NCBI GenBank assembly: GCA_021771025.1
Contig: JAETPW010000007.1
Span: 60,744 to 124,743 of the forward strand
Direction: 5' to 3'
DNA: 64,000 bases
Origin: Clostridiaceae bacterium
GTDB taxonomy: Bacteria; Bacillota; Clostridia; TANB77; CAG-508
Shown here piece after piece: positions 2,064 through 49,109 of the stretch. The position numbers were made by a program, and so were the translations under genes. Below the pieces are notes generated by a model. The model worked only from the letters and a program-made list of their open reading frames with translations. It was not told where the DNA came from and made no database searches. Position 1 is the first letter of the stretch. Each line of letters begins with the position of its first letter.

Positions 2064-4793
2064 ATGGAAAAGAAAATTTGGTTTACCAAAAGCATCGAAG
2101 AAGTAAAACAAGAATTACAAACAGATGAGGCAAATGGATTATCCTCAGAGGAAGTCAAAAAACGTCAAGAACAGTATGGGCTAAACGAATTACAAGCAGC
2201 CAAAAAGAAAAAACTATGGCAACGATTTTTAGATCAATTCAAAGATTTTTCCATCATTGTCTTAATCATTGCTGCCATTGTTTCAGGGGTAGTAGGAGTA
2301 GCAGAAGGCGAAGGAATTACGGATACGATTATTATTTTAATTGTTGTTTTAGTCAATGCCATTATTGGTATAGCTCAAGAAAGTAAAGCCGAAAAATCAT
2401 TAGAGGCTCTTCAACAACTAAGTAATCACGCAGCAAAAGTGATTCGTAATGGAACAATGGAAGTCATCCCTGCTAAAGAACTTGTACCAGGAGATGTTAT
2501 CGTTTTAGATACAGGAGATTATATTCCAGCAGATTTACGTGTAATAGAAGCCATCAATTTAAAATCACAAGAAAGTTCACTAACCGGAGAATCTGTCCCA
2601 GTAGAAAAAACAACAGGCAAGATTGATGATGAAGAAGTAGGAATAGGCGATAGAACCAATCTATTATTTTCTTCTAGCCTAATTACTTATGGCAGAGGAA
2701 AAGGAATTGTTGTTTCTACCGGTATGGAAACCGAAGTAGGAAAAATAGCCGGAATGATCAATAACACCGAAAAGCAAGAAACACCCTTACAGCGAAAATT
2801 AAATCAGTTAGGAAAAACATTAGGAACAGCAGCTTTACTCATTTGCGTATTCATTTTTGTTTTAGGACTATTCCAAGGAAAAGAACCAATTCATATGTTT
2901 ATGACAGCGGTATCGTTAGCAGTAGCAGCTATTCCAGAAGGGTTAGTAGCGGTATCTACCATTGTTCTTGCTATAGGGGTACAAAAAATGGTAAAACGTC
3001 ATGCCATCGTGAAAAGGCTTCCAGCAGTAGAGACATTAGGTGGGGCAACTGTCATTTGTTCAGATAAAACAGGAACGTTAACACAAAACAAAATGACCGT
3101 AGAAAAAATCTTTTGGAACGATTCTTTAAGAGAGTTAAAAGATATTCAAGAATCAGAAATGGACCAAGAATTAAAACAACTAGTCTATGCCAATATGTTA
3201 TGCAATGACACCAAAATAGGCAAAGAAGGGACACTAACAGGAGACCCAACCGAAACCGCGTTAGTTGATATGGCATTTGCTTTAAATTTCGATCCAAGCA
3301 TTTATGACCGTACCCCAAGAATAGAAGAAGTACCTTTTGACTCAGATCGAAAATTAATGACAACCGTCAACAAGGTAGGAAATGAATATGTCGTTTATAC
3401 CAAAGGAGGAATAGACGAATTATTAAGAAGATGTAACTCCTATGTATTAAATGGGGAAATATATCCTCAGATAGACCAATATATGCCTAAAATCAGAAAA
3501 GAAAACGAGGCAATGGCAAAAGAAGCATTACGTGTATTAGGATGTGCTTACAAAAAAATAGACCATCAGCCAAGTAAAGAAGAAATGGAAAAGATAGAGC
3601 AAGACCTTACCTTTATTGGTATGGTAGGAATGATTGATCCTCCAAGAGAAGAGGCTAAAAAGGCAGTAGAAACGTGTAAAATGGCGGGAATCAAAACCGT
3701 AATGATTACCGGAGATCACAAAATTACTGCTATTGCTATTGCCAAAAAATTAGGCATTATTGAGCAAGAAGACGAAGCATTAACTGGATTAGAATTAGAA
3801 CAAATGTCAGATGAAGAGTTAACCAAAAACATTAGAAAATATGCAGTATATGCTCGAGTTTCACCAGAACACAAAGTTCGTATCGTTAAAGCTTGGCAAA
3901 AAAACGGTGAAATTGTAGCCATGACAGGGGACGGAGTAAACGATAGCCCAGCCTTAAAAACGTCTGATATTGGTTGTGCTATGGGAATTGTTGGTACAGA
4001 TGTAGCAAAAGAAGCGGCAGATGTTATCCTAACTGATGACAATTTTGCAACCATTGTATCAGCCGTAGAAGAAGGAAGAAGAATATACGATAATATCTTA
4101 AAAGTAATTCAATTCTTACTATCTAGCAATGTAGGAGAAATTTTTGTTTTATTATTTGCTACTTTACTTACTCCTTTATTTGCCCAGTGGTTCGGCATAA
4201 CCGACATTAATCATTTAGAAATATTATTACCAATTCATATTTTGTGGATTAATTTAGTCACTGATTCATTGCCAGCTTTAGCCTTAGCCTTTGATCCAGC
4301 AAACCGTGATATTATGAAACGAAAACCAGTAAAACCAAGCCAAGGAGTATTCACCAAAGGAATGATTTGGCGAGTGATTTACCAAGGAGTTATGATTGGT
4401 GGACTTACTTTAGCAGCCTTTATGATTGGCCTTGCGACGACAACAGAGCCAATTGGAAACTTAAGTTTAGATGCTTCTAAAATTGAAATAGGGCAAACGA
4501 TGGCATTTATGACATTAGCTTTATCTGAGTTAGTTCATGTATTTAATGTAAGAGATAATAAAAACTCACTAGTTAAAACAAAAGTATTTAATAATACTAA
4601 ATTGATCTGGGCGGTATTAGCTTCGGCAACGCTAATGTTTGTTATTGTAGGTGTGCCTGGATTAAGAGAGGTATTTAGTATACCACTTCTTCCAAAGGAA
4701 AATGTGATTGAATTGGTTGCTTTGATTTTAGCACCAGTTGTGATTGTTGAATTGTTTAAGTTGATTAAAATAAATACTACAAAGGATGAGTAA
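2064..4793 (+). CDS. P-type cation-translocating ATPase (Ca2+-ATPase, PMCA/SERCA-like, type IIA)
   Basis: DKTGTLT phosphorylation motif, TGDGVNDSPALK, a cation-ATPase N-terminus, and ten predicted transmembrane segments; 909 aa. Confidence 0.9.
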   Translation: MEKKIWFTKSIEEVKQELQTDEANGLSSEEVKKRQEQYGLNELQAAKKKKLWQRFLDQFKDFSIIVLIIAAIVSGVVGVAEGEGITDTIIILIVVLVNAIIGIAQESKAEKSLEALQQLSNHAAKVIRNGTMEVIPAKELVPGDVIVLDTGDYIPADLRVIEAINLKSQESSLTGESVPVEKTTGKIDDEEVGIGDRTNLLFSSSLITYGRGKGIVVSTGMETEVGKIAGMINNTEKQETPLQRKLNQLGKTLGTAALLICVFIFVLGLFQGKEPIHMFMTAVSLAVAAIPEGLVAVSTIVLAIGVQKMVKRHAIVKRLPAVETLGGATVICSDKTGTLTQNKMTVEKIFWNDSLRELKDIQESEMDQELKQLVYANMLCNDTKIGKEGTLTGDPTETALVDMAFALNFDPSIYDRTPRIEEVPFDSDRKLMTTVNKVGNEYVVYTKGGIDELLRRCNSYVLNGEIYPQIDQYMPKIRKENEAMAKEALRVLGCAYKKIDHQPSKEEMEKIEQDLTFIGMVGMIDPPREEAKKAVETCKMAGIKTVMITGDHKITAIAIAKKLGIIEQEDEALTGLELEQMSDEELTKNIRKYAVYARVSPEHKVRIVKAWQKNGEIVAMTGDGVNDSPALKTSDIGCAMGIVGTDVAKEAADVILTDDNFATIVSAVEEGRRIYDNILKVIQFLLSSNVGEIFVLLFATLLTPLFAQWFGITDINHLEILLPIHILWINLVTDSLPALALAFDPANRDIMKRKPVKPSQGVFTKGMIWRVIYQGVMIGGLTLAAFMIGLATTTEPIGNLSLDASKIEIGQTMAFMTLALSELVHVFNVRDNKNSLVKTKVFNNTKLIWAVLASATLMFVIVGVPGLREVFSIPLLPKENVIELVALILAPVVIVELFKLIKINTTKDE

Positions 4794-4961
4794 GGTTAAT
4801 TTATCCTCGAAAGATCACTTTCTTTTTATCTTACTTTAGCGTTGGAAATAGTTAGATTTAGTTAGTGAAAGAAAATAAGTAATGAATAAAACCAGTGAAT
4901 ACTATCTCTAAATATAGTATTCATTGGTTTTTGTCGTTACTAGATAATAGTTTTTACGAAT

Positions 4962-5160
4962 GAGTCCGCTCTGAACCCAAGGCATCTGTAGTATTTTTGG
5001 GATAAATTTAGTCTTCCATAGCAGGGGCATTTTAAAACCCTTAAGTCCCTAACGAAGAGGCCTGTAATCGGGTTTTAAGGCTGACGCGGGTCTTAGGGAA
5101 CTGTCAGACGTAAATTTATCCCAAAAATACTACAGATACCTTGGGTTCAGAGCTACTTTG
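4962..5160. repeat. MITE-like structured repeat, family S, copy 1 (about 199 bp with about 50-bp terminal inverted repeats)
   Basis: The left arm AGTCCGCTCTGAACCCAAGGCATCTGTAGTATTTTTGGGATAAATTTA is the reverse complement of the right arm. The conserved core TCCATAGCAGGGGCATTTTAAAACCCTTAAGTCCC...GGGTTTTAAGGC...TCTTAGGGAACTG is shared with copies at 55959-56156 and 58988-59106. Confidence 0.8.
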
Positions 5161-5265
5161 TTGGAAAAGATTATTCAGTAACTTTTTGTTCATAAATGAT
5201 CTCAATTTGTAGAAAAAAATAAAAAAATATGTTATAGTGTAAAAATAAAATAGGAGGAAAATAAC

Positions 5266-6135
5266 ATGGAATGGGATTTATTTGTTTCACATGCTTCAGA
5301 AGATAAAGATGACATTGTAAAACCGTTAGTCCAAGAATTAGAAAGCTATGGATTAAAAGTATGGTATGATGAATTTGAATTAAAGATAGGAGATAGTTTA
5401 TCAGAGTCAATAGATAAGGGAATTATTCACTCTAAAAATGGTTTACTGATAATCAGTAAAAGTTTTCTGAATAAAAATTGGACCGATTATGAATTAAAAA
5501 GTTTTATTATGAAAGAAACTGAACAAGGCGGAAATATTTTACCAATTTGGCACAATGTTACTAAAAAAGATATGATGAATAGAAGTTTATTTCTTGCCGA
5601 TAAATTTGCATTATCTTCTAGTATAGGAGTAAAAAAATTGGCCATAAAAATTTTACAAAAAATTAGACCAGATATATTAAGTAGTTATGCTTTAAAAAGT
5701 GCTGTTAGAAATGCTTATGCAGAAGAAAAGGGAAAATCAGAGAAAGTTAGCATTGAAGAGTTAAGAGATGGAAAAATAGTCCACAAATCACTTCCTAACT
5801 ATATTGTAGCTTCAAGCTTTTTGATTAGTCAAATATTTTCTGATGTATGGGATTCAGATTTTAATGACTTTATTGAAAACCTAGCAAGGGATTGGGATTA
5901 TGATAGAGAATTTTTTATCTGGAATGTCATTACCAGTTCCTATTTGATGTTTATCAGAAATAATAAAATTTCTTTTGATGATACGAAGAAGAAGAGAAAG
6001 GTCTTTGGTGATTTAGTTAATTTGTCATTTGGAATTGTAGAGCCAACTTTTCTTAGTAAAGATGAATTTAATATTTTAATACAGATTTATAAGTATAATT
6101 ATGATTTTATAGATCAATTTGGTCTGAAATCGTGA
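5266..6135 (+). CDS. TIR-domain protein (N-terminal Toll/interleukin-1 receptor domain, about 135 aa, plus an uncharacterised roughly 150-aa C-terminal domain)
   Basis: DLFVSHASEDKD box 1, VWYDEFELKIGDSL, and NWTDYELKSF, which matches the catalytic-glutamate motif WCLDEL of NADase TIRs. Strong SD site AGGAGG 8 nt upstream. Very AT-rich gene with no partner gene. Confidence 0.85.
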   Translation: MEWDLFVSHASEDKDDIVKPLVQELESYGLKVWYDEFELKIGDSLSESIDKGIIHSKNGLLIISKSFLNKNWTDYELKSFIMKETEQGGNILPIWHNVTKKDMMNRSLFLADKFALSSSIGVKKLAIKILQKIRPDILSSYALKSAVRNAYAEEKGKSEKVSIEELRDGKIVHKSLPNYIVASSFLISQIFSDVWDSDFNDFIENLARDWDYDREFFIWNVITSSYLMFIRNNKISFDDTKKKRKVFGDLVNLSFGIVEPTFLSKDEFNILIQIYKYNYDFIDQFGLKS

Positions 6136-6261
6136 TTAAAAGTATTTACACGTATTTTTGTATGGTCAATTATCCTAATCAAGGCTGAAAAGAAACATTC
6201 TGTTCACAGTTTTTGTCATTTAGTTCCCTCTACCTACTCTATAATTTATATGCTTGTCGAA

Positions 6262-6355
6262 GGTAACGAATAAACGTAACTACTCAGATGGTGCATAAAT
6301 CTAGTCCGCTCTCAAGGGGATATAGGAAGACCATCTGAGTAGTTACCGAATAAAC
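6262..6355. repeat. hairpin element with flanking 9-bp direct repeat (related to family S; contains the AGTCCGCTCT motif)
   Basis: 17-bp perfect inverted repeat GTAACTACTCAGATGGT/ACCATCTGAGTAGTTAC around a roughly 37-nt loop carrying TAGTCCGCTCTCAAGG, flanked by CGAATAAAC on both sides. Confidence 0.6.
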
Positions 6356-38654: not shown

Positions 38655-38735
38655 TATTCAATCTATGTAAGTTCTCAAAGTTTACCAATAGCAAGAAAGG
38701 GGGAATATGTTGGTTTTAAAAGCTAACATATGCTA
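38655..38735 (+). promoter_or_regulatory. leader element family L, copy 2
   Basis: TTCAATCTATGTAAGTTCTCAAAGTTTACCAATAGCAAGAAAGGGGGAATATGTTGGTTTTAAAAGCTAACATATGCTAG. The uORF MLVLKANIC stop overlaps the ATG of the M23 peptidase gene. Confidence 0.6.
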
Positions 38736-39977
38736 GAAACAATGCGTAAAATTTTATGTATCGTTTTCGCTTTTCTCATCTGTTTAGTCGCAACGTATGT
38801 ACAGGCAGAAGATATGAATACAACGAACACGAATCAAGGAGGAACAGATTTACAAACCAAGCAAAAAGAATTGCAAGATCAAATTAATCAGGCAAATGAT
38901 GAATTAAATCAAACGCAAAGTCAGCTTTCAGAAAATTTGCAACAAGTGCAAAAGTTAGATGAAAAAATTGCTGGATCTGAAACAGAACTGAGTGACTTAA
39001 CAGAAAAGATAGAAAACTTAAAAACGTCAATGAATAAGGTGCAGCAAGAATTAACGGAAGTAACAGAGCGTTATGAAAGGCAAAGACAAATTTTTGAACA
39101 ACGAATGGTAGCTATTTATGAGGCGGGAGATACTAATTATTTAGATATCCTTTTGCGTTCAAGAAGTGTTTCCGATTTTCTTTCTAGTTATTATGTTATT
39201 TCCGAAATAGCTGATTCAGATACAGAACTGTTAAATGATATAGCTGAAAAGAAAGACCAAATATCGCTTGCTAAACAAAAACTAGATAACGAAAAAACAG
39301 AGTTAGCACAAATGATTGAAACACAAAGTAGAACAGCTAAAATTTTGCAAAATACTAAGGTGATTCGTGAAAATTATATTGCTAAGTTATCAGAGGAAGA
39401 AAAAGCAAAACAGGCACAAATCGATGAATACAATCAAGCATTAGCACAAATCAATAGCCAAATTTTGCAATTAGCACAAGCAGGCATTGATACCCAATAC
39501 ATAGGAGGAGAATTAGCATGGCCAACACCAGGCTATACGAGAATTAGTTCTCCTTATGGAATGAGAGTACATCCGATTACTGGTGTTTATAAATTACATA
39601 CGGGAGTTGACATAGGAGCACCAATGGGAGCAAACTTTGTAGCTGCTAACGAGGGAATTGTTGTAAAATCAGAATATAATGTAGCTTACGGTAAAATGGT
39701 ACTGATTGACCATGGAGGAGGAATTTCCACCTTATATGCTCATGGATCTGAATTTTTAGTACAAGTAGGAGATTCAGTGACAAGAGGACAAGCCGTATTA
39801 AAGGTAGGATCTACTGGATATTCAACAGGTGCACATGCTCACTTTGAAGTAAGAAAAAATGGTTCACCAGTAAATCCAATGCCATACATTACGAATGGAA
39901 TAGTACCAAATTCAGAGCAAGATGCACAAGGAAATACTACTGCTACTAAAGAAGAAATACAAAATACAACCAATTAA
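38730..39977 (+). CDS. M23 family metallopeptidase with N-terminal coiled-coil domain (EnvC/FtsEX-partner-like)
   Basis: Long coiled coil followed by an M23 LytM domain (HTGVDIGAP...HAHFEV). Confidence 0.8.
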   Translation: MLETMRKILCIVFAFLICLVATYVQAEDMNTTNTNQGGTDLQTKQKELQDQINQANDELNQTQSQLSENLQQVQKLDEKIAGSETELSDLTEKIENLKTSMNKVQQELTEVTERYERQRQIFEQRMVAIYEAGDTNYLDILLRSRSVSDFLSSYYVISEIADSDTELLNDIAEKKDQISLAKQKLDNEKTELAQMIETQSRTAKILQNTKVIRENYIAKLSEEEKAKQAQIDEYNQALAQINSQILQLAQAGIDTQYIGGELAWPTPGYTRISSPYGMRVHPITGVYKLHTGVDIGAPMGANFVAANEGIVVKSEYNVAYGKMVLIDHGGGISTLYAHGSEFLVQVGDSVTRGQAVLKVGSTGYSTGAHAHFEVRKNGSPVNPMPYITNGIVPNSEQDAQGNTTATKEEIQNTTN

Positions 39978-40157
39978 CCAAAACAAAAGAAAAGCGAAAA
40001 ACGAAGAAAAAATTGGTATAATTTCTTATAGGATGTTTTTCTGCCATGCGGAGAAACATCCACTAAAAGAAAAAACGGGCGAAGAAAATTCGCCTATCAA
40101 AATACTAACTAAAATTACCAAAAAGTGGAGATTTTAGTAAAAAGTAGGAGGAAACTG

Positions 40158-41396
40158 ATGAAAAAGATAGGAATGAAATTAATCGGAATTGTATTAATGG
40201 GGATTATCTCTTTTCATGCAACTGGGGTATTGGCGATAACAGAAAATGAGTTAAATAGTCAAAAACAGCAAAATAATCAAAAGATGAACGAAGTAAAAGA
40301 AAAAGAAAAAGAAGTACAAAATATCAAAGATGAAACAGTAAGAGAAGTTGAAAAGTTGACTACGCAAATTGGTGAATATCAAAGTCAAATTAATGGATTA
40401 AATACACAAATAGAGGAAGCTAATCAAAAAATAGCCGATGCTACGGAAAAATTGACAAAAGCACAAGAAGACTATAAAAAACAAGAGGAAATTTTAAATG
40501 AGAGAATGGTTGCTTTGTATGAAGCAGGCGAAACTTCTTATTTAGATGTTTTATTATCTTCACAAAGTGTAACAGATTTCATTTCTAGTTATTATTTAAT
40601 TTCAGAAGTAGCAGAATGTGATTTAGCGTTATTAGAAAAAATAGACAAACAAAAACAGGAAATTGAAAAAGCTAAAAATGATTTGGAAAATAGCAAAAAC
40701 GAATTAACTAGTGCCAAAAATGAAAAGCAAAAAGTAGCTAATGATTTGCAAAGTGTTAAACAAGAAAAAGACTCTTATGTAGGTAAACTATCAGAAGAGC
40801 AAAAGAAATTACAACAACAAATTGATGAATTACAAAAAGACAATGTATCCATTGACCAAAAGATCAAACAAAAGCAAGCAGAGGCAAAAAAGAAATTAGA
40901 AGAAGAACAAAAAAAGCAAAATAGTCAATCTGGAAATAGTGGAGGTTCTTCTAACACTAGTGGAGGAGGAAGTTCATCTACTCAAAAAAATCCTTCAGGT
41001 TTTATTTATCCAGTGCCATCTGCTTATGCCAAAATAACGACAGGTTGGTATTATTCTGATGGAAGACTACACGGAGCATCAGACTTTGGAACTGGTGGAA
41101 TTGCCGGTCAACCAGTGTATGCAGTTGCTGATGGAGTAGTTGTTACTACAGAACGATTGACAACTAGTTATGGAAATTACATTATTATTATGCATAACAA
41201 TGGACTATATACGTTATATGCCCATGGACAAGCAGGATCTATTGCAGTTTCAGAAAATCAATACGTAAAACAGGGACAACAAATCATGAGGGTAGGAAAT
41301 ACAGGAAACTCTTTTGGAGCACATTTACATTTTGAAGTAAGAACTAGCCCCGGATTATATCAGAATCGTGTAAATCCAGTTAATTATTTACCATAG
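40158..41396 (+). CDS. M23 family metallopeptidase with coiled-coil domain (paralog)
   Basis: Same architecture; HGASDFGTGG...HLHFEVR. Confidence 0.8.
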   Translation: MKKIGMKLIGIVLMGIISFHATGVLAITENELNSQKQQNNQKMNEVKEKEKEVQNIKDETVREVEKLTTQIGEYQSQINGLNTQIEEANQKIADATEKLTKAQEDYKKQEEILNERMVALYEAGETSYLDVLLSSQSVTDFISSYYLISEVAECDLALLEKIDKQKQEIEKAKNDLENSKNELTSAKNEKQKVANDLQSVKQEKDSYVGKLSEEQKKLQQQIDELQKDNVSIDQKIKQKQAEAKKKLEEEQKKQNSQSGNSGGSSNTSGGGSSSTQKNPSGFIYPVPSAYAKITTGWYYSDGRLHGASDFGTGGIAGQPVYAVADGVVVTTERLTTSYGNYIIIMHNNGLYTLYAHGQAGSIAVSENQYVKQGQQIMRVGNTGNSFGAHLHFEVRTSPGLYQNRVNPVNYLP

Positions 41397-44094: not shown

Positions 44095-44250
44095 GAAAAA
44101 ATAAGGGAAAAAAATTATTTTATCTTTTGAAAAGAAGGATGATTTTTAACTAAAGATAAAATAATTTTTTTCCAAAAAGTATTGACAAACAAATGAAAAA
44201 GCTTTATAATAACTACTGTTACCGAGGAAACTTAGTAACCAACTAAATAT

Positions 44251-44565
44251 GGGTAGGTGGCCGAGTGGCTAAAGGCGGCAGACTGTGGTCTTTGGTAAAA
44301 ACAAAACCTAAACTTGCAGCTCTTGTCAGTAATGATAAGATGAACACCGGGCTAATTCGGGGAACTCTAAGGGTAGAAATACTGATGACAATCCCGAGCT
44401 AGGAAGAAAACTTCCGAGTGTAGAGACTTTATACCTGGTATCTTCTAAGCAGAAGATAAAGAGAAAGTCCAGACTACAAACATGGTAAAATGGTAGTGAA
44501 AACTATAGTAGTAAGAAATCTGTTCTCATTTGAGTACGATGGTTCGAATCCATCCCTGCCCACCA
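44251..44565 (+). tRNA. tRNA-Tyr (GUA) gene interrupted by a group I intron in the anticodon loop
   Basis: Exon 1 (44251-44286) gives acceptor GGGUAGG, D-arm GCC-GAGUGGCUAAA-GGC, and anticodon stem GCAGA plus CUGU. Exon 2 (44516-44565) gives AAA, UCUGU, a long variable arm, T-arm GAUGG-UUCGAAU-CCAUC, CCUGCCC-A-CCA. The spliced anticodon loop is CUGUAAA. The exon sequence is very close to Bacillus tRNA-Tyr. Confidence 0.7.
44287..44515 (+). ncRNA. group I self-splicing intron (229 nt) within tRNA-Tyr
   Basis: The upstream exon ends in U and the intron ends in G (omega-G). P-, Q-, R- and S-like elements are present (AATTCGGGGAAC, AATCCCGAGC, TCCAGACTACA, AAACTATAGTAG), and GCAG 30 nt inside the intron can pair with the exon end CUGU. 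Confidence 0.65.
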
Positions 44566-44595
44566 AAAATACAAGGAAACTTGTATTTTATTTTT
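44562..44595 (+). repeat. 34-bp direct repeat (att-like), left copy; also the tRNA terminator hairpin
   Basis: Identical to 49076-49109. Confidence 0.8.
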
Positions 44596-44638
44596 CTATT
44601 ACACACGAACAAAGGTTCTAAATAAAAAGGGGAAGAAT

Positions 44639-45019
44639 ATGAATTTTGCTACTAATAAAGAAAAGGGAAATTCAGGATTAGGCATAGCCATTGCCTATTT
44701 TTCGACGAATGGATATACTGTTTCCATACCGTTAAACGACACTCAAGATTATGATTTGATTGTAGAGAAAGACGGGAAATTGAAAACGATACAAATAAAA
44801 GCAACTGGATGTAAAACTAAATGGGGAAATTATCAAGTAGCTTTAAAAAGTTGTGGTGGAACAAAGGGGAAAAGTTATAAGACAGTCATTGAGACGAGAG
44901 TAGATGAATTATTTATCGTAAATGATAGGCAAGAGATGTACCTAATTCCCATTAATGATATTAAGAATAAATCAACTTTAACCTTATGTTCAAAGTATGA
45001 TAAATATAGAGTTTACTAA
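44639..45019 (+). CDS. small PD-(D/E)xK-fold nuclease-like protein (YraN/Hjc-like pattern)
   Basis: GNSGLGIAIAYFSTNGYTVSIPLNDTQDYDLIVEKDGKLKTIQIKAT follows the G-GE-A--L---GY-I....GEIDLI....L-FVEVK template of UPF0102-type nucleases. Confidence 0.4.
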   Translation: MNFATNKEKGNSGLGIAIAYFSTNGYTVSIPLNDTQDYDLIVEKDGKLKTIQIKATGCKTKWGNYQVALKSCGGTKGKSYKTVIETRVDELFIVNDRQEMYLIPINDIKNKSTLTLCSKYDKYRVY

Positions 45020-45183
45020 TATTTCTGTGCTTTAAATTTTGTAGTAAATTTAAAATTGGTTTAAATAAGTCTCTAATAGAAAAATGCAAGATATGCAGTT
45101 ACTCATTTCTGTAAGTAATTGTTTTTTTTGTAATTTTGTGATATAAAATTGGTAAAATAAAAATTTATACGAGGAGAAAAGTA

Positions 45184-45733
45184 AATGGATAATTATTTTA
45201 TAATACATGGAAGCTTTGGAAGCCCGTTGTAAATTGGTTTAGTTGGTTACAAGATTTTATATCATGTGATGGAAAACAAGTATATGTACCACAATTTCCA
45301 ATAGGAGTAGGTTATCAAAATTATGGAAATTGGAGTAAACTACTTAAATACTATTTAGATTTAGGTTTAATCAATAAAAATACAACAATAATCGGTCATA
45401 GTATTGCACCAGTATTTATATCAAGATTTTTAATTGAAAATGAAGTAAAGGTCAAAAAATTAATATTTGTATGTGGATTTAACAATTATTTAGGAATAGA
45501 CGAAGAATATGATACAGTAAATAAAACAATGTATTTTGATAATTTGAAAGATGTAAAGAAATATGCAAATGAAATTATTTGTTTCTATTCAGAAATGATC
45601 CATATGTAAAATACGAAGTAGAAAGAGAATTTGCAGACAAGATTCGGGGCAGAGCAAGTTCTATTACCTAATGCAGGACACATAAATAGCGAAAGTGGAT
45701 ATGACACATTTGAAGACATAGCAAATTATATTT
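45184..45733 (+). pseudogene. YdeN/RBBP9-like serine hydrolase, disrupted by frameshifts
   Basis: MDNYFIIHGSFGSP, then stop. Other frames give NWFSWLQDFISCDGKQVYVPQFP...IIGHSIAPVFISRF...ICFYSE and then a frameshifted C-terminus. The ORF track shows nothing of 60 aa or more here. Confidence 0.5.
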
Positions 45734-45746
45734 AAAGAGGTAAAAA

Positions 45747-46095
45747 ATGAAAATAGTAAAATTTAGTGATGCACAAACAGTAAAAAATAGTCATACAAGT
45801 AAATTATTAGAATATTCGATAGATTTAAATGATAAAGATATTGATTTTTGTATAAATACAATTAGTGGTCAATATCCAGAAAAAGGATATTGCACTAATG
45901 AAAGATGCAAAGAAATCTGTTATATACTAGAGGGAAAGGGAACTCTTAATAAAAGAGATGAAAGTATTAATTTTGAAAAAGGTGTGTATTTTAATAGAAA
46001 AAGAAGAAATTTACTATTGGAATGGAAATTGCGAAATAATTATGATATGCACTCCTGCTTGGTATAAAGAACAATGTAAGTTATTAGATTTATAG
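45747..46095 (+). pseudogene. cupin-domain protein with probable C-terminal frameshift
   Basis: The ORF ends with FNRKRRNLLLEWKLRNNYDMHSCLV, whereas the +1 frame reads the cupin-typical EKEEIYYWNGNCEIIMICTPAWYKEQ. Confidence 0.4.
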
Positions 46096-46121
46096 AAAAA
46101 ATTTTAAAGGAGATAAATAAT

Positions 46122-47174
46122 ATGTCAAATCAATTTCAACTATTAGATGATCACTTTATAAAAATTGTAAAAGATATTGAAAAGGATATTTTAGATACAA
46201 GATATAATATCATTTCAAGGGCAAATAAAGAGGTGGTAAATTTTTATTTAAGACTTGGAAAAATAATTAGTGATAATGCTAAATATGGGAATAATTTTAT
46301 TAATAGATTATCAGTAGCATTAAAATTAGATTTTCCAGATGAGCAGGGATTTTCGGCTCGTAATCTAGCAAGAATGAGAAAAGTATATGAAGCATATAAA
46401 GATTTATCTAGTATTCCAAAAGAATTAGAAATAATATCATGGTCACAAAATTGTGTTTTAGTAGATAAAATTGAAGATATTGATAAAAGAGTTTGGTATG
46501 CTAAGCAAATTATTGAAAATGGTTGGTCTAAAACTGTATTAAGCCATCAAATTGATTTAGAATTATATGAAAGACAAGCATTACCAGATAAAATGACCAA
46601 TTTTAATGATAAGCTACCTATTGCACAAAGCGAATTTGCTAGAGATATGATAAAAGATCCATATATTTTTGAATTAGCTAACATAGGAAAAAGAGCAAAA
46701 GAAAGAGATATTGAAAAGGCAATGTTAGAAAGAATAAAGAATGTGTTGCTTGAATTAGGCAAAGGTTTTAGTTTTGTTGGAAATCAATATAAAATTTCAA
46801 CCAATGATAATGATTATTATATAGATTTATTATTTTATCACTTGGATTTAAGATGTTTTGTAGTTGTAGAATTAAAAAATACAGAGTTTAAACCTGAATA
46901 TGTTGGACAATTAGGATTTTATGTAACAGCAGTTGATGAAACTTTGAAAAAAGAAACAGACAATGAAACGATAGGATTATTACTTTGTGAAGATAAGGAT
47001 AAACTAACAGTTGAATGGTCTTTAAAAGGTGTAAATGCACCAATAGGAGTAGCTTCATATAAAGTGAAAAATGTTATTCCAAAAGAAATAATGGAGAAAT
47101 TACCAACGGAAGAAGAATTAAATTTATATATAAAAAAATTACCAAATGAGGAAATTGAAGGAGAAAGTGATTAG
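46122..47174 (+). CDS. DUF1016 (YhcG-like) protein with C-terminal PD-(D/E)xK nuclease domain
   Basis: YhcG-type N-terminal domain; C-terminal nuclease motif D-LLFYH...VVVELK. Paralog of the fragment at 1-279. Confidence 0.75.
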   Translation: MSNQFQLLDDHFIKIVKDIEKDILDTRYNIISRANKEVVNFYLRLGKIISDNAKYGNNFINRLSVALKLDFPDEQGFSARNLARMRKVYEAYKDLSSIPKELEIISWSQNCVLVDKIEDIDKRVWYAKQIIENGWSKTVLSHQIDLELYERQALPDKMTNFNDKLPIAQSEFARDMIKDPYIFELANIGKRAKERDIEKAMLERIKNVLLELGKGFSFVGNQYKISTNDNDYYIDLLFYHLDLRCFVVVELKNTEFKPEYVGQLGFYVTAVDETLKKETDNETIGLLLCEDKDKLTVEWSLKGVNAPIGVASYKVKNVIPKEIMEKLPTEEELNLYIKKLPNEEIEGESD

Positions 47175-47180
47175 TATTTT

Positions 47181-47206
47181 GAAATTTGCCACTGGTGGCA
47201 AATTTC
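47181..47206 (+). other. palindromic hairpin between the DUF1016 gene and the downstream gene
   Basis: GAAATTTGCCACTGGTGGCAAATTTC. A variant, GAAATTTGCCGCCAGTGGCAAAATTT, follows the next gene at 49042-49067. Confidence 0.6.
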
Positions 47207-47230
47207 ATATATAGATTGTATGAGGAAAAA

Positions 47231-49036
47231 ATGAAAGAATTAGATAATAAAATAAATTTAGGAAAAGTAACGGAAAATCACTTTAAAGAAAGTAAATCAA
47301 TAACAATTTTAAGAGAAATTGTAGAGAAAAATAATAGAATTAAGGTAAGAGCAACTGAAGCAGATAAAATAGCAAATTTAGATGGTAAAGTAGTAATAAT
47401 AGATAAAAATAGTTTCGAAAGGATTCATATTGAAATACAAGTAAAAACATTACCAGAAAAATATAATTTGAGGAAACAGTATTCATATAGTTGCGATACA
47501 AAAGCTTTCAATGTTGTTTTAGAACATATTACATTTAATTCAGTTGTATTATTTTTGGTTGATGAGCAAACAAATAGAGTATTTTGGAAATTAATTTCAA
47601 ATGAATATGCAAAAAGTTTGAATATCGGAAATCAAGAAAAAAAGACAATATATTTTAATGATCAAGATTTATATAGTGAAAATAATTTTATAGAAAAGAT
47701 AAGCGATTATTGTGATTCACTTTGTGAAATAATAGATAAAAAAGATGCTAATAAAAGTTTAATTTCATCAAATATAGATGAATATAGTACAGAATATATA
47801 GAGATACAAATGCAAGTTGACAGATTAAAAAATATATTCGATAATGAATTAAAACATATTAAAGATGTATTTTTTAAATATGTATGGAAATTTGGAATAT
47901 CATATAATAAGTTTCAAAAGCAAACTGCAATGGGCATTTATTTTATTACATATGGAAAGAATGATACTTTAATAAAAAGATTTGACCCTAGACTAAATTA
48001 TATACATATGTCTATTAATTTTCAAAAAAATATTACATTAGAAGCATATATTAATGAATGGTTAGAAGAAGTAAAAAAACAATATTATTTAAAAGAACCA
48101 ATTCTTGTGAAAAATTTATCAGATGATATATTGAATGAAATTGTATTTAGTTTTTTAGATAAACTAACAATGAATATTAAAGTATTAGAAGATAAAAATA
48201 GACCATACACATACTATAAAGATGAGGAAAAAGTCAATAATATAGTTAATCTTATAAATGCTTTAGAATTATTTTATGAAGAAATAATAAAAACGAAAGA
48301 TTTGTCAAATGTAAGTAGTGCTGTTGCTTTTCTTACACCTACATATAATTTGACTGGCAAATTCTTACTCTTTAACCCTCTTATACAATTTAATGCTGAT
48401 GAAATAAAATTGTTAAACCAATATTTTAATCAAACTAATCCCAATGTCCCTCTAAAATTTTTGGATAATGGAGAAGATAAAAAAATACAATTAAGTTTTT
48501 TAGCAATACAAGAATTACAGAAACGTACAAGGGACAGTATAAAAAGAATATGGAATAAGAAAAATATAGTAAAATGTAAAGAAGATTTTGCAAAAGAAGT
48601 TCAATGTATTAGAACAGGGTATTCTAAAGAAGATTTAATAATAAATTCAAAGCACTTTTTTGATATTATTGCCGAAAATTATAATTTTGTGTTTAATAAG
48701 TCTAGTTATTCAGATAAATATTATTTAGATGATTTACATTTAATAGTGTTAGATGAAAACGAAATACAAACATATAATGATTATATTACCCAAAATAATG
48801 TTTTCGAAGTGAAAAGGATTTGTAATGATATAAAAATTGATGAAGAGAATATTATTTCTATAATTGAATCTAATTTAGAATGCTTATTTTTGCTAGATAC
48901 TCCACTATATGAAACTGTTAGAATATTGTTATATATTGGTATTATGAAAAATAATGACTATAAAGTAAAAGATGAAAATGTAAACTATAGTGTTAAATTT
49001 GAAGAATTACCTATCATTAATTATTATATAGATTAA
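47231..49036 (+). CDS. 601-aa protein with N-terminal DUF4365/Mrr-like PD-(D/E)xK-type domain and a large uncharacterised C-terminal region
   Basis: ATG at 47231 with a GAGGA RBS. N-terminus LDGKVVIIDKNSFERIHIEIQVKT...FWKLIS fits the D...E.QVK signature of the DUF4365 restriction-endonuclease-like fold. The remaining roughly 430 aa have no recognisable motif. About 24% GC. Confidence 0.55.
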   Translation: MKELDNKINLGKVTENHFKESKSITILREIVEKNNRIKVRATEADKIANLDGKVVIIDKNSFERIHIEIQVKTLPEKYNLRKQYSYSCDTKAFNVVLEHITFNSVVLFLVDEQTNRVFWKLISNEYAKSLNIGNQEKKTIYFNDQDLYSENNFIEKISDYCDSLCEIIDKKDANKSLISSNIDEYSTEYIEIQMQVDRLKNIFDNELKHIKDVFFKYVWKFGISYNKFQKQTAMGIYFITYGKNDTLIKRFDPRLNYIHMSINFQKNITLEAYINEWLEEVKKQYYLKEPILVKNLSDDILNEIVFSFLDKLTMNIKVLEDKNRPYTYYKDEEKVNNIVNLINALELFYEEIIKTKDLSNVSSAVAFLTPTYNLTGKFLLFNPLIQFNADEIKLLNQYFNQTNPNVPLKFLDNGEDKKIQLSFLAIQELQKRTRDSIKRIWNKKNIVKCKEDFAKEVQCIRTGYSKEDLIINSKHFFDIIAENYNFVFNKSSYSDKYYLDDLHLIVLDENEIQTYNDYITQNNVFEVKRICNDIKIDEENIISIIESNLECLFLLDTPLYETVRILLYIGIMKNNDYKVKDENVNYSVKFEELPIINYYID

Positions 49037-49075
49037 AATGTGAAATTTGCCGCCAGTGGCAAAATTTATTTTCAA

Positions 49076-49109
49076 ACCAAAAATACAAGGAAACTTGTAT
49101 TTTATTTTT
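49076..49109 (+). repeat. 34-bp direct repeat (att-like), right copy
   Basis: Identical to 44562-44595. Confidence 0.8.

Follow-up and report, generated by a model that had tools for sequence, protein, structure and literature searches.

Background

The classical group I introns of bacterial tRNA genes belong to subgroup IC3 and comprise four types (Leu.3Ug of cyanobacteria, fMet.2Ug, Arg.5Ug, and Ile2.5Ug of Azoarcus), which have in common a site in the anticodon loop, a preceding U and a terminal G. Williams (bioRxiv 10.1101/2020.01.27.920355) expanded these four types to 21, and the seed introns include one in tRNA-Tyr, Mba143.Tyr.4Ug. A survey of 4,934 complete genomes (PMC13011429) records 28 introns at position 35/36, with one unnamed case in Bacillota_A, and a Tyr(GUA) 35/36 intron in a Patescibacteria genome; nearly all Patescibacteria tRNA introns, and 25 of the 28 introns at 35/36, are classed there as subgroup IA. 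Here we describe an interrupted tRNA-Tyr(GUA) gene in a 64,000-nucleotide (nt) stretch of a Clostridiaceae genome (assembly GCA_021771025.1, contig JAETPW010000007.1, positions 60,744 to 124,743; hereafter the window), together with its 229-nt group I intron and a 126-amino-acid (aa) open reading frame (ORF) downstream of the gene. The combined evidence is best explained, with a probability that we put at about 0.7, by a functional tRNA-Tyr gene interrupted by an ORF-less intron that would be mobilised in trans by the endonuclease encoded downstream.

Two described systems bear on this reading. I-Ssp6803I (Protein Data Bank entry 2OST) is a small homing endonuclease of about 150 aa, of family PF11645 (PDDEXK_5), encoded within the tRNA-fMet intron of the cyanobacterium Synechocystis, and PF11645 endonucleases inside tRNA-fMet and tRNA-Arg introns are also reported in the survey (PMC13011429). 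Recent surveys, in which endonuclease genes were sought only inside introns (PMC13011429), have concluded that most bacterial tRNA introns are without a homing endonuclease and hence nearly immobile. The second system is collaborative homing in phages, exemplified by mobE and the nrdB intron of T4 and by F-CphI and the psbA intron of cyanophage S-PM2 (PMC3984707, PMC2790892).

Results

The interrupted tRNA-Tyr gene

A first-pass annotation, made from the sequence alone, had described window positions 44251-44565 (plus strand) as a tRNA-Tyr(GUA) gene interrupted in the anticodon loop, and the sequence matches that description (coordinates of all features are collected in Table 1). Run in intron mode, ARAGORN calls tRNA-Tyr(gta) with a mature length of 86 nt, an intron of 229 nt and the junction actgt^aaatc (the caret marks the splice junction here and below); the insert separates U35 from A36 in standard tRNA numbering. 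Given only the joined exons, ARAGORN likewise calls tRNA-Tyr, with a 7-base-pair (bp) acceptor stem (one U.G), a 5-bp anticodon stem and an encoded CCA, which bears out the canonical D arm, anticodon stem, long variable arm and T arm claimed earlier. Splicing would be expected to yield the exon junction GGCAGACUGU^AAAUCUGUUC. Exon 1 is the same in intron-bearing and intronless alleles of relatives, and its last four nt, CUGU, form the 5' strand of P1.

The consensus promoter upstream is kept in two contigs of the same species (L004 and L005; loci fetched for comparison carry the prefix L). Directly 3' of the CCA, a terminator-like hairpin can be recognised by eye; the terminator scan is silent on it because its stem has too few G-C pairs. 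We take the locus to be a working tRNA-Tyr(GUA) gene that is transcribed from a promoter of its own and from whose transcript the intron would have to be removed. Default ARAGORN and an Rfam scan at gathering thresholds both miss the locus, and the sole call that they return in the window is a tRNA-Glu(CTC) at 1790.

Structure of the intron

The insert is preceded by U and ends in G, as had been noted before, and its assignment as a group I intron at 35/36 is upheld by a sub-threshold match to RF00028 (Intron_gpI), by homologues at the same site and by covariation from P1 to P9. The RF00028 match covers 44299-44488 with 34.9 bits (E = 2.6e-7 in a 501-nt search) but does not reach the gathering score of 50; its alignment positions P3, P4, P6, P8 and the R and S elements in the insert. 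According to Williams, the Rfam group I seed holds no bacterial sequences, and cut-offs of 18-20 bits were used there.

For a test of the structure, 32 pre-tRNAs were aligned, a P1-P9 structure was drawn by hand, and pairs were counted and compared with 500 shuffles. In this structure 98.3% of cells are paired, and displacing the 3' partners by 1-3 columns lowers this value to 34-44%; both-side changes occur at 30 pairs, and the observed values are reached in 0 of the 500 shuffles. Changes on both sides are found at all eight pairs of P2 (100% of cells paired) and at four of the six pairs of P3, and compensatory changes at three of the five counted pairs of P8, with one compensatory pair each in P4, P5 and P9, two in P9a and three in P9b. 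The minimum-free-energy (MFE) fold of the intron recovers most helices, among them P4, P5 and P5a (z = -2.5). The UUGCAG guide, AGUCC, the J7/9 joiner, the GAAA loop L9b and the terminal G are invariant in 32/32, as are the GNRA character of L2 and intron positions i133-142 (UGUAGAGACU) within the R element; G132 is invariant in the alignment as well. We consider it highly probable that the insert is a genuine group I fold under selection, and splicing of the window intron is to be expected from it.

P1 is formed by the GCAG of the guide and the CUGU of the exon, with a U.G wobble at the 5' splice site, in 32/32 sequences; a P1a hairpin sits inside its loop. The UU of the guide has two alternative partners, intron nt 1-2 and, in a P10 pairing, the A residues at the start of exon 2. 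The internal loop of P5 resembles a tetraloop receptor (UCUAAG/CUGAUGA) and lies below a distal hairpin, GGUA-GAAA-UACU. P7 consists of G.GACU/AGUCC (G137 and G139-U142 with A180-C184) and forms a pseudoknot with P3. Of the core elements proposed in the first-pass annotation, P, Q and P4 (UCGGG/CCCGA) stand, whereas R, S and P7 have to be reassigned: the CUAC/GUAG pairing taken for P7 is the outer P9 helix.

Comparison with catalogued tRNA introns

The window intron resembles the classical IC3 introns in its length (both about 200-250 nt), in lacking an ORF and P5abc, and in its P2 GNRA loop, R element GUGUAGAGACU, S element ending in AGUCC, and P9 junction with a GAAA hairpin. Its R element is the same as in Azoarcus Ile2 and other tRNA-intron seeds of the Williams alignment, its P7 sequence is that of Azoarcus and other tRNA-intron seeds, and its P9 architecture is found in the Leu, fMet, Thr and Arg seed introns. 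It differs from the classical IC3 introns in its tRNA-Tyr host, its 35/36 site, the long P1a hairpin in the P1 loop, a P6 that begins GCU and not GCC, and its sub-threshold Rfam score. Judged by the sequence features common to the Williams seeds, it is a bacterial tRNA intron of IC3-like type.

The host had previously been thought unusual, a view that is out of date in the light of the Tyr.4Ug type and the Patescibacteria Tyr(GUA) 35/36 intron mentioned above. The window intron fits the definition of Tyr.4Ug (tRNA-Tyr, insertion after the fourth anticodon-loop nt, U at -1, terminal G), and the Mba143 seed has the same host tRNA, site (CUGU^AAA) and P1 guide (GCAG). However, that seed has a P4 of AACGGUG/UACCGU, a P6 of the form GG...CC and a single P9 hairpin, unlike the Clostridia intron with its IC3-type P4 and three-way P9, and the identity between the two introns (58%) is not above the values for introns in other tRNAs. 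Because P4, P6 and P9 differ in this way, the comparison suggests that the tRNA-Tyr 35/36 site may have been colonised independently by a second intron lineage. Neither the host nor the site is new, and the window intron is either a new member or a second lineage of a catalogued type.

Global identity of the window intron to ten catalogued seeds and two phage introns is uniformly 50-61%, and for this reason we claim no particular classical parent. Descent from a tRNA-Leu(UAA) intron had been suspected from motifs in common with an intron of a Lak megaphage and was dropped. That intron (205 nt, L001:421-711, plus strand) splits a tRNA-Leu(UAA) gene at the classical 34/35 site in LR756501.1, a 735-kb uncultured Lak-type megaphage, and contains GTGTAGAGACT, AAGTCCAGACTACAAAC and TATAGTAGTAAG, as does the window intron. 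An intron of the same kind as that of the window, 197 nt long, splits a CUA tRNA gene at the equivalent site, CUCU^AAA, in a 217-kb viral contig (IMGVR_UViG_3300032038_009890; L009:7423-7707, plus strand); the tRNA is an amber suppressor, labelled 'Pyl' by ARAGORN, and is clustered with Asp, Pro and Ser tRNA genes. By eye, the guide changes to match the exon in both (GAGU/ACUU in L001, GGA/CUCU in L009). All phage introns known by 2014 lay in protein-coding genes (PMC3984707).

The downstream ORF belongs to the I-Ssp6803I family

The 126-aa ORF starts 73 nt after the CCA of the tRNA, past the terminator hairpin and outside the intron. It matches PF11645 with 64.5 bits (cut-off 26.1), and its only significant sequence relative in the Protein Data Bank is 2OST (E = 8.7e-4 with the ORF sequence alone, 1.2e-5 with a profile of 43 sequences). 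With an AlphaFold model of the ORF (predicted local distance difference test score, pLDDT, 71; predicted template-modelling score, pTM, 0.68), the top four Foldseek matches are chains of 2OST (E 1.4e-5, TM 0.67) and the next are about 1000-fold weaker; the sole PADLOC match is the model 'HEase'. Residues D39 and Q52-x-K54 are invariant in 65/65 tRNA-linked copies and are aligned to two motifs of 2OST, YDL and QVK, whose positions we take to be those of the catalytic residues of I-Ssp6803I. The family comprises at least 2004 clusters, all of about 126 aa, with PF11645 present in all 120 homologues listed, and dN/dS (the ratio of nonsynonymous to synonymous substitution rates) is about 0.21-0.27.

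I-Ssp6803I and the window ORF thus have PF11645 and the D...QxK motif in common, are both small, and are both tied to a tRNA gene with a group I intron in its anticodon loop. They differ in that the former is cyanobacterial and intron-encoded, whereas the latter lies downstream of tRNA and terminator in Clostridia; their identity is about 23%.

Distribution of the intron and its linkage to the ORF

A 24-nt exon-1 pattern was scanned against 185,579 species-representative genomes and found at no fewer than 120 loci, nearly all in uncultured gut Clostridia of humans, ruminants, rabbits and chickens, including Clostridium sp. CAG:567. Among the 120 loci listed, 89 are uninterrupted and 31 carry an insert of 198-248 nt at the identical site; every one of the 31 is called as tRNA-Tyr with an intron, and none of the inserts contains an ORF. 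Mature tRNA haplotypes are shared by genes with and without the intron (5/18, 5/16, 6/10, 2/3 and 1/4). No other intron in the sample is more than 89% identical to that of the window. Within the species of the window, three independent metagenome contigs carry the interrupted gene with 96-100% identity, again downstream of greA; the intron of one of them (L004) has five differences, all in loops or peripheral positions, one of which turns the P5a loop GAAA into GUAA. Most relatives have a tRNA-Met-tRNA-Tyr arrangement where the window gene follows greA, and greA is upstream of tRNA-Tyr in none of the other genome loci.

Linkage between ORF and intron was counted at those of the 120 listed loci that extend at least 520 nt downstream of the tRNA. 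The ORF is present at 14 of 27 intron-bearing loci and absent from the other 13; among 75 intronless loci, 73 lack it and two retain only remnants of 18 and 24 aa (Fisher p = 3e-8). In all ORF-bearing loci the ORF starts 68-110 nt after the CCA. From the opposite side, 80 metagenome loci were picked solely for encoding an ORF homologue, and counts were made at the 67 whose upstream sequence reaches 420 nt or more: directly upstream of the ORF stand 53 intron-bearing tRNA-Tyr genes, four intronless ones and, in ten cases, no tRNA. The intron is thus present in 93% of ORF-adjacent tRNA-Tyr genes (53/57), against 26% of those sampled by exon.

Pairwise comparisons indicate that the ORF comes and goes as a unit. 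L101 and L099 differ by a clean gap of about 480 nt at the ORF module, and the simplest modules are of about this size (~480 nt) and carry no cargo. The flanks of L114 and L038 are 93-97% identical, and of the ORF L038 keeps only 26 nt at the start and ~60 nt at the end; L019, with intron and ORF, and L016, with neither, have upstream flanks that are 91% identical. Degraded ORF remnants lie beside intronless tRNA-Tyr genes in L051 and L123. The DNA-level search for remnants in ORF-less loci is noisy in this AT-rich sequence, and the convincing ones are those of L038, L051 and L123. Among close relatives, loci that have both intron and ORF are interspersed with loci that have neither, and this holds for at least five exon haplotypes. 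The link between ORF and intron is not due to general synteny: greA is absent elsewhere, and the ORF forms a discrete unit between flanks that are conserved. The remnants, clean gaps and shared haplotypes make up the pattern of invasion, decay and loss expected of homing elements. The likeliest explanation of the intron's patchy distribution is the downstream 126-aa PD-(D/E)XK endonuclease.

Intact ORFs do occur beside intronless genes, at five loci that represent four distinct ORF sequences (those of L201 and L203 are identical). In two of the five, L180 and L184, the anticodon stem is altered (TCTAT and TCCAG), a change that could confer immunity at the target site.

A repeat-flanked cassette and the tRNA 3' end

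In the window, the ORF lies in a 4.5-kb cassette (44562-49109) closed by a perfect 34-nt direct repeat, each copy consisting of ACCA and the terminator hairpin. The cassette is low in GC (25-29%), lacks an integrase and contains, besides the PDDEXK_5 ORF, a 106-aa ORF (orf106), a YhcG/DUF1016 nuclease gene, which PADLOC assigns to the candidate defence system PDC-S02 (E 3e-122), and a 616-aa DUF4365 gene. A locus from another sample, L007, has the permuted junction DUF4365-repeat-ORF, as a circle or tandem copy would give. We had considered this repeat-flanked form as the general form of the ORF module and rejected it: it is absent from 13/13 other ORF-bearing genome loci and from 40/40 metagenome loci, and the cassette is therefore a local event.

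Other DNA has entered at the same place. In L004 and L005 the DNA directly after the CCA differs from the ORF cassette; in L004:3951-6477 (JGI 3300044856 contig) the homology to the window stops exactly after the CCA, and a gene for a 564-aa large serine recombinase (Resolvase and Recombinase domains) follows at 4651-6345, about 700 nt past it. The intronless L120 carries a 4.2-kb repeat-flanked insertion at the tRNA end. These insertions mark the 3' end of tRNA-Tyr as a general insertion hotspot. On contig ERZ824473.840 (L182 and L195) two PDDEXK_5 ORFs lie 4.8 kb apart, the first after an intron-bearing tRNA-Tyr and the second preceded only by CACCA and the terminator hairpin, an arrangement that suggests tandem cassettes at the tRNA 3' end. 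The ORF modules without a tRNA mostly open with 4-13 nt of the tRNA 3' end and the terminator.

Table 1. Positions of the tRNA-Tyr gene, intron elements, ORF and repeats in the window
Feature	Position	Strand	Sequence or remark
Sigma-70-type promoter	44182-44210	+	TTGACA-17 nt-TATAAT; 12/12 consensus match, ~40 nt 5' of tRNA
tRNA-Tyr exon 1	44251-44286	+	GGGTAGGTGGCCGAGTGGCTAAAGGCGGCAGACTGT; acceptor 5' strand, D arm, anticodon stem 5' strand, C32 U33 G34 U35
Group I intron without ORF	44287-44515	+	229 nt, begins GG, ends ...GTAAG; RF00028, homologues, covariation
Internal guide sequence	44314-44319	+	UUGCAG; invariant in 32/32
P2 hairpin	44321-44340	+	8 bp, GNRA tetraloop L2 (GUAA in window); covariation
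P3 5' strand	44346-44351	+	partner 44434-44439; Rfam alignment agrees
P4-P5-P6 domain	44357-44419	+	P4 UCGGGG/UCCCGA; P5; P6/P6a
R element	44418-44428	+	GUGUAGAGACU; contains P7 5' strand (G137, G139-U142; A138 bulged)
P3 3' strand	44434-44439	+	P3 covariation
P8 hairpin	44440-44457	+	AUCUUCU-AAGC-AGAAGAU; in MFE and centroid folds
S element	44459-44470	+	AAGAGAAAGUCC; J8/7 and P7 3' strand (AAGAGAA-AGUCC); J8/7 nearly invariant
P9 three-way junction	44473-44512	+	outer P9 ACUAC/GUAGU, P9a, P9b (GAAA loop); covariation
Terminal G (omega G)	44515	+	abuts 3' splice site; every homologue ends in G (32/32)
tRNA-Tyr exon 2	44516-44565	+	AAATCTGT...CCCTGCCCACCA; A36 A37 A38, anticodon stem 3' strand, long variable arm, T arm, acceptor 3' strand, encoded CCA
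Direct repeat, left copy	44562-44595	+	34 nt (ACCA and terminator hairpin); last 4 tRNA nt included
Terminator-like hairpin	44566-44595	+	AAAAUACAAG-GAAA-CUUGUAUUUU then U run; by eye, directly 3' of CCA
126-aa ORF	44639-45019	+	I-Ssp6803I family (PD-(D/E)XK, Pfam PDDEXK_5); candidate free-standing homing endonuclease
Direct repeat, right copy	49076-49109	+	34 nt; perfect; closes 4.5-kb cassette

Proposed mechanism and alternatives

Splicing of the window intron would follow the established group I pathway. The guide GCAG would pair with exon CUGU to form P1, with the U.G at the splice site; an exogenous guanosine, bound at the G-C pair of P7, would attack after U35; the terminal G of the intron would then take the guanosine site, and the freed exon 1 would attack before A36. 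The exons would be held by the anticodon stem and a short P10, and the anticodon loop CUGUAAA would be restored. For mobility we propose that the free-standing endonuclease probably cuts ORF-free tRNA-Tyr loci, at the anticodon region or in the 3' flank, and that repair from a donor with intron and ORF would copy both parts, as in collaborative or trans homing; the direction of transfer would thus be from loci with both features to loci without the ORF. The ORF would later decay and be lost, sometimes together with the intron. As for its separate part in this scheme, we lean slightly towards the view that the ORF is or was the mobility factor of the intron.

The likeness to the phage systems lies in the combination of an ORF-less intron with an adjacent free-standing endonuclease gene. 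Unlike them, the window system resides on a bacterial chromosome, has a tRNA as host gene and involves a PD-(D/E)XK enzyme, not an HNH or endonuclease VII enzyme; its ORF is an independent insertion/deletion module of which decayed copies are present. We offer only tentatively, as somewhat less than an even chance, that this is a case of collaborative homing, which would be without a described precedent outside phages or in a tRNA gene; in some strains, including that of the window, the cassette would also bring defence-type cargo into the tRNA-Tyr 3' flank, and the duplicated tRNA end and terminator would act as a portable homology arm.

Several observations weigh against mobilisation in trans. 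The Fisher test for association between ORF and intron ignores phylogeny; an intact ORF is missing from about half of the intron-bearing loci, and 10 of the 67 ORF copies have no tRNA upstream. Intact ORFs beside intronless tRNA-Tyr genes with the standard site, in L076, L201 and L203, mean that the intron is not strictly needed for immunity. The structural model of the ORF is only moderately confident at a pLDDT of 71, and since the window ORF lies within a repeat-flanked cassette among defence-like genes, a different mobility mechanism may have acted. With regard to the intron itself, the Rfam score is under the curated cut-off (34.9 against 50 bits); owing to filters, the RF00028 match is absent from E-value searches of 60-64 kb, for the window intron and for seven homologues alike, so that the gene goes unannotated; and P7 and the base of P6 never vary in the 32-sequence alignment, so covariation cannot test them.

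The most serious competitor, which we nevertheless regard as unlikely, holds that the intron is real and splices but that the PDDEXK_5 ORF has no role in its mobility, being a passenger or lead gene of islands that insert at the 3' end of tRNA-Tyr, or a nuclease with another role such as defence, whose statistical link to the intron reflects shared descent in a sub-lineage and physical proximity. It can draw on the cassette with its PDC-S02 and DUF4365 genes, on the circle-like or tandem-like junction in L007, on the stubs of tRNA 3' end borne by tRNA-less copies, on the use of the same site by the serine recombinase island of L004 and the insertion of L120, on the intact ORFs beside intronless standard genes, and on the presence of PF11645-like domains in defence nucleases, such as SPARDA, among the weaker Foldseek matches. 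However, the repeat-flanked form is missing from all of the other ORF loci (13/13 and 40/40), the simplest modules are free of cargo, and both and neither states alternate across exon haplotypes of close relatives; the intron is present in 93% of ORF-adjacent genes as against 26% overall, and the closest characterised relative is specifically a homing endonuclease targeting the anticodon region of a tRNA gene.

Far less probable is that the insert is a decayed, non-splicing relic in a tRNA-Tyr pseudogene whose function is supplied by an uninterrupted copy elsewhere. The low Rfam score would fit this, and the greA context and own promoter, which depart from the tRNA-Met-tRNA-Tyr arrangement, could mark an extra copy; yet across 32 species-level sequences the catalytic core is invariant and the helices are kept by compensatory changes, the exons are those of functional intronless alleles, and the promoter is a perfect consensus match. 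Moreover, the 120 listed matches come from 120 assemblies, with no second exon-1 copy in the intron-bearing genomes among them. That the locus is a transfer-messenger RNA (tmRNA) or other structured RNA with tRNA-like ends can be practically dismissed. TRNA-like termini set apart by a long internal segment would be consistent with it, as would a weak RF00023 match and the 28.6-bit match of a small RNA family, SpF41, over the 3' exon and terminator; but the canonical D arm, anticodon stem and variable arm rebuild a full tRNA-Tyr, intronless alleles with identical exons exist in 89 genomes, and the internal segment folds as a group I core. The first-pass annotation had itself argued against a tmRNA, and rightly so: RF00023 reaches only 8 bits (E 0.43), and ARAGORN reports no tmRNA. 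The tmRNA or small RNA reading was accordingly rejected, the SpF41 match covering only the T arm and terminator.

Implications

As far as we found, the linkage between ORF and intron has no description in the literature. With an endonuclease gene tightly linked outside the intron, the conclusion that bacterial tRNA introns are nearly immobile may understate their mobility. In carrier genomes the supply of tRNA-Tyr probably depends on self-splicing of the ribozyme, and since the gene completely escapes routine annotation (default ARAGORN, Rfam gathering threshold), such genomes would seem to lack tRNA-Tyr. Close relatives also provide a natural series, with both features, the intron only, the ORF only, decayed ORFs, and empty sites, and hence a tractable bacterial system for studying how free-standing endonucleases and introns join, which is a proposed route to mobile introns.

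Genomic context and other observations

The window is part of a low-GC (~32%) bacterial chromosome, in which the gene order is two pcsB-like genes, a ctpA-like gene, a CDP-alcohol phosphatidyltransferase gene, greA, tRNA-Tyr, a small island and ftsZ. A search of a plasmid collection gave no match, and matches in a phage collection are partial only, all to other group I introns. Two of these, in the crAss-like phages OQ198718.1 (L002:601-671) and MT774387.1 (L003:601-658), share about 81% identity with the P8-P7-P9 portion of the window intron; the stretches are unannotated, are bounded by a GIY-YIG endonuclease ORF on one side and by the downstream exon of the replicative helicase gene on the other, and represent group I introns by which that gene is split. 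ARAGORN in intron mode also calls Arg(TCT), Gln, Trp and other interrupted tRNAs in the fetched loci. The two Arg(TCT) calls that were inspected are ghost exons joined to an intronless tRNA-Tyr and were rejected, and the remaining Gln, Trp and other calls are probably the same artefact.

The Rfam family SpF41_sRNA, a Streptococcus small RNA, matches window 44493-44595 with 28.6 bits, under its cut-off of 52 bits; the family consensus itself resembles a tRNA T arm followed by a terminator. The two PcsB-like paralogues, of 415 and 423 aa, stand side by side at window 38730-41396, and each combines a coiled coil with an M23 peptidase domain.

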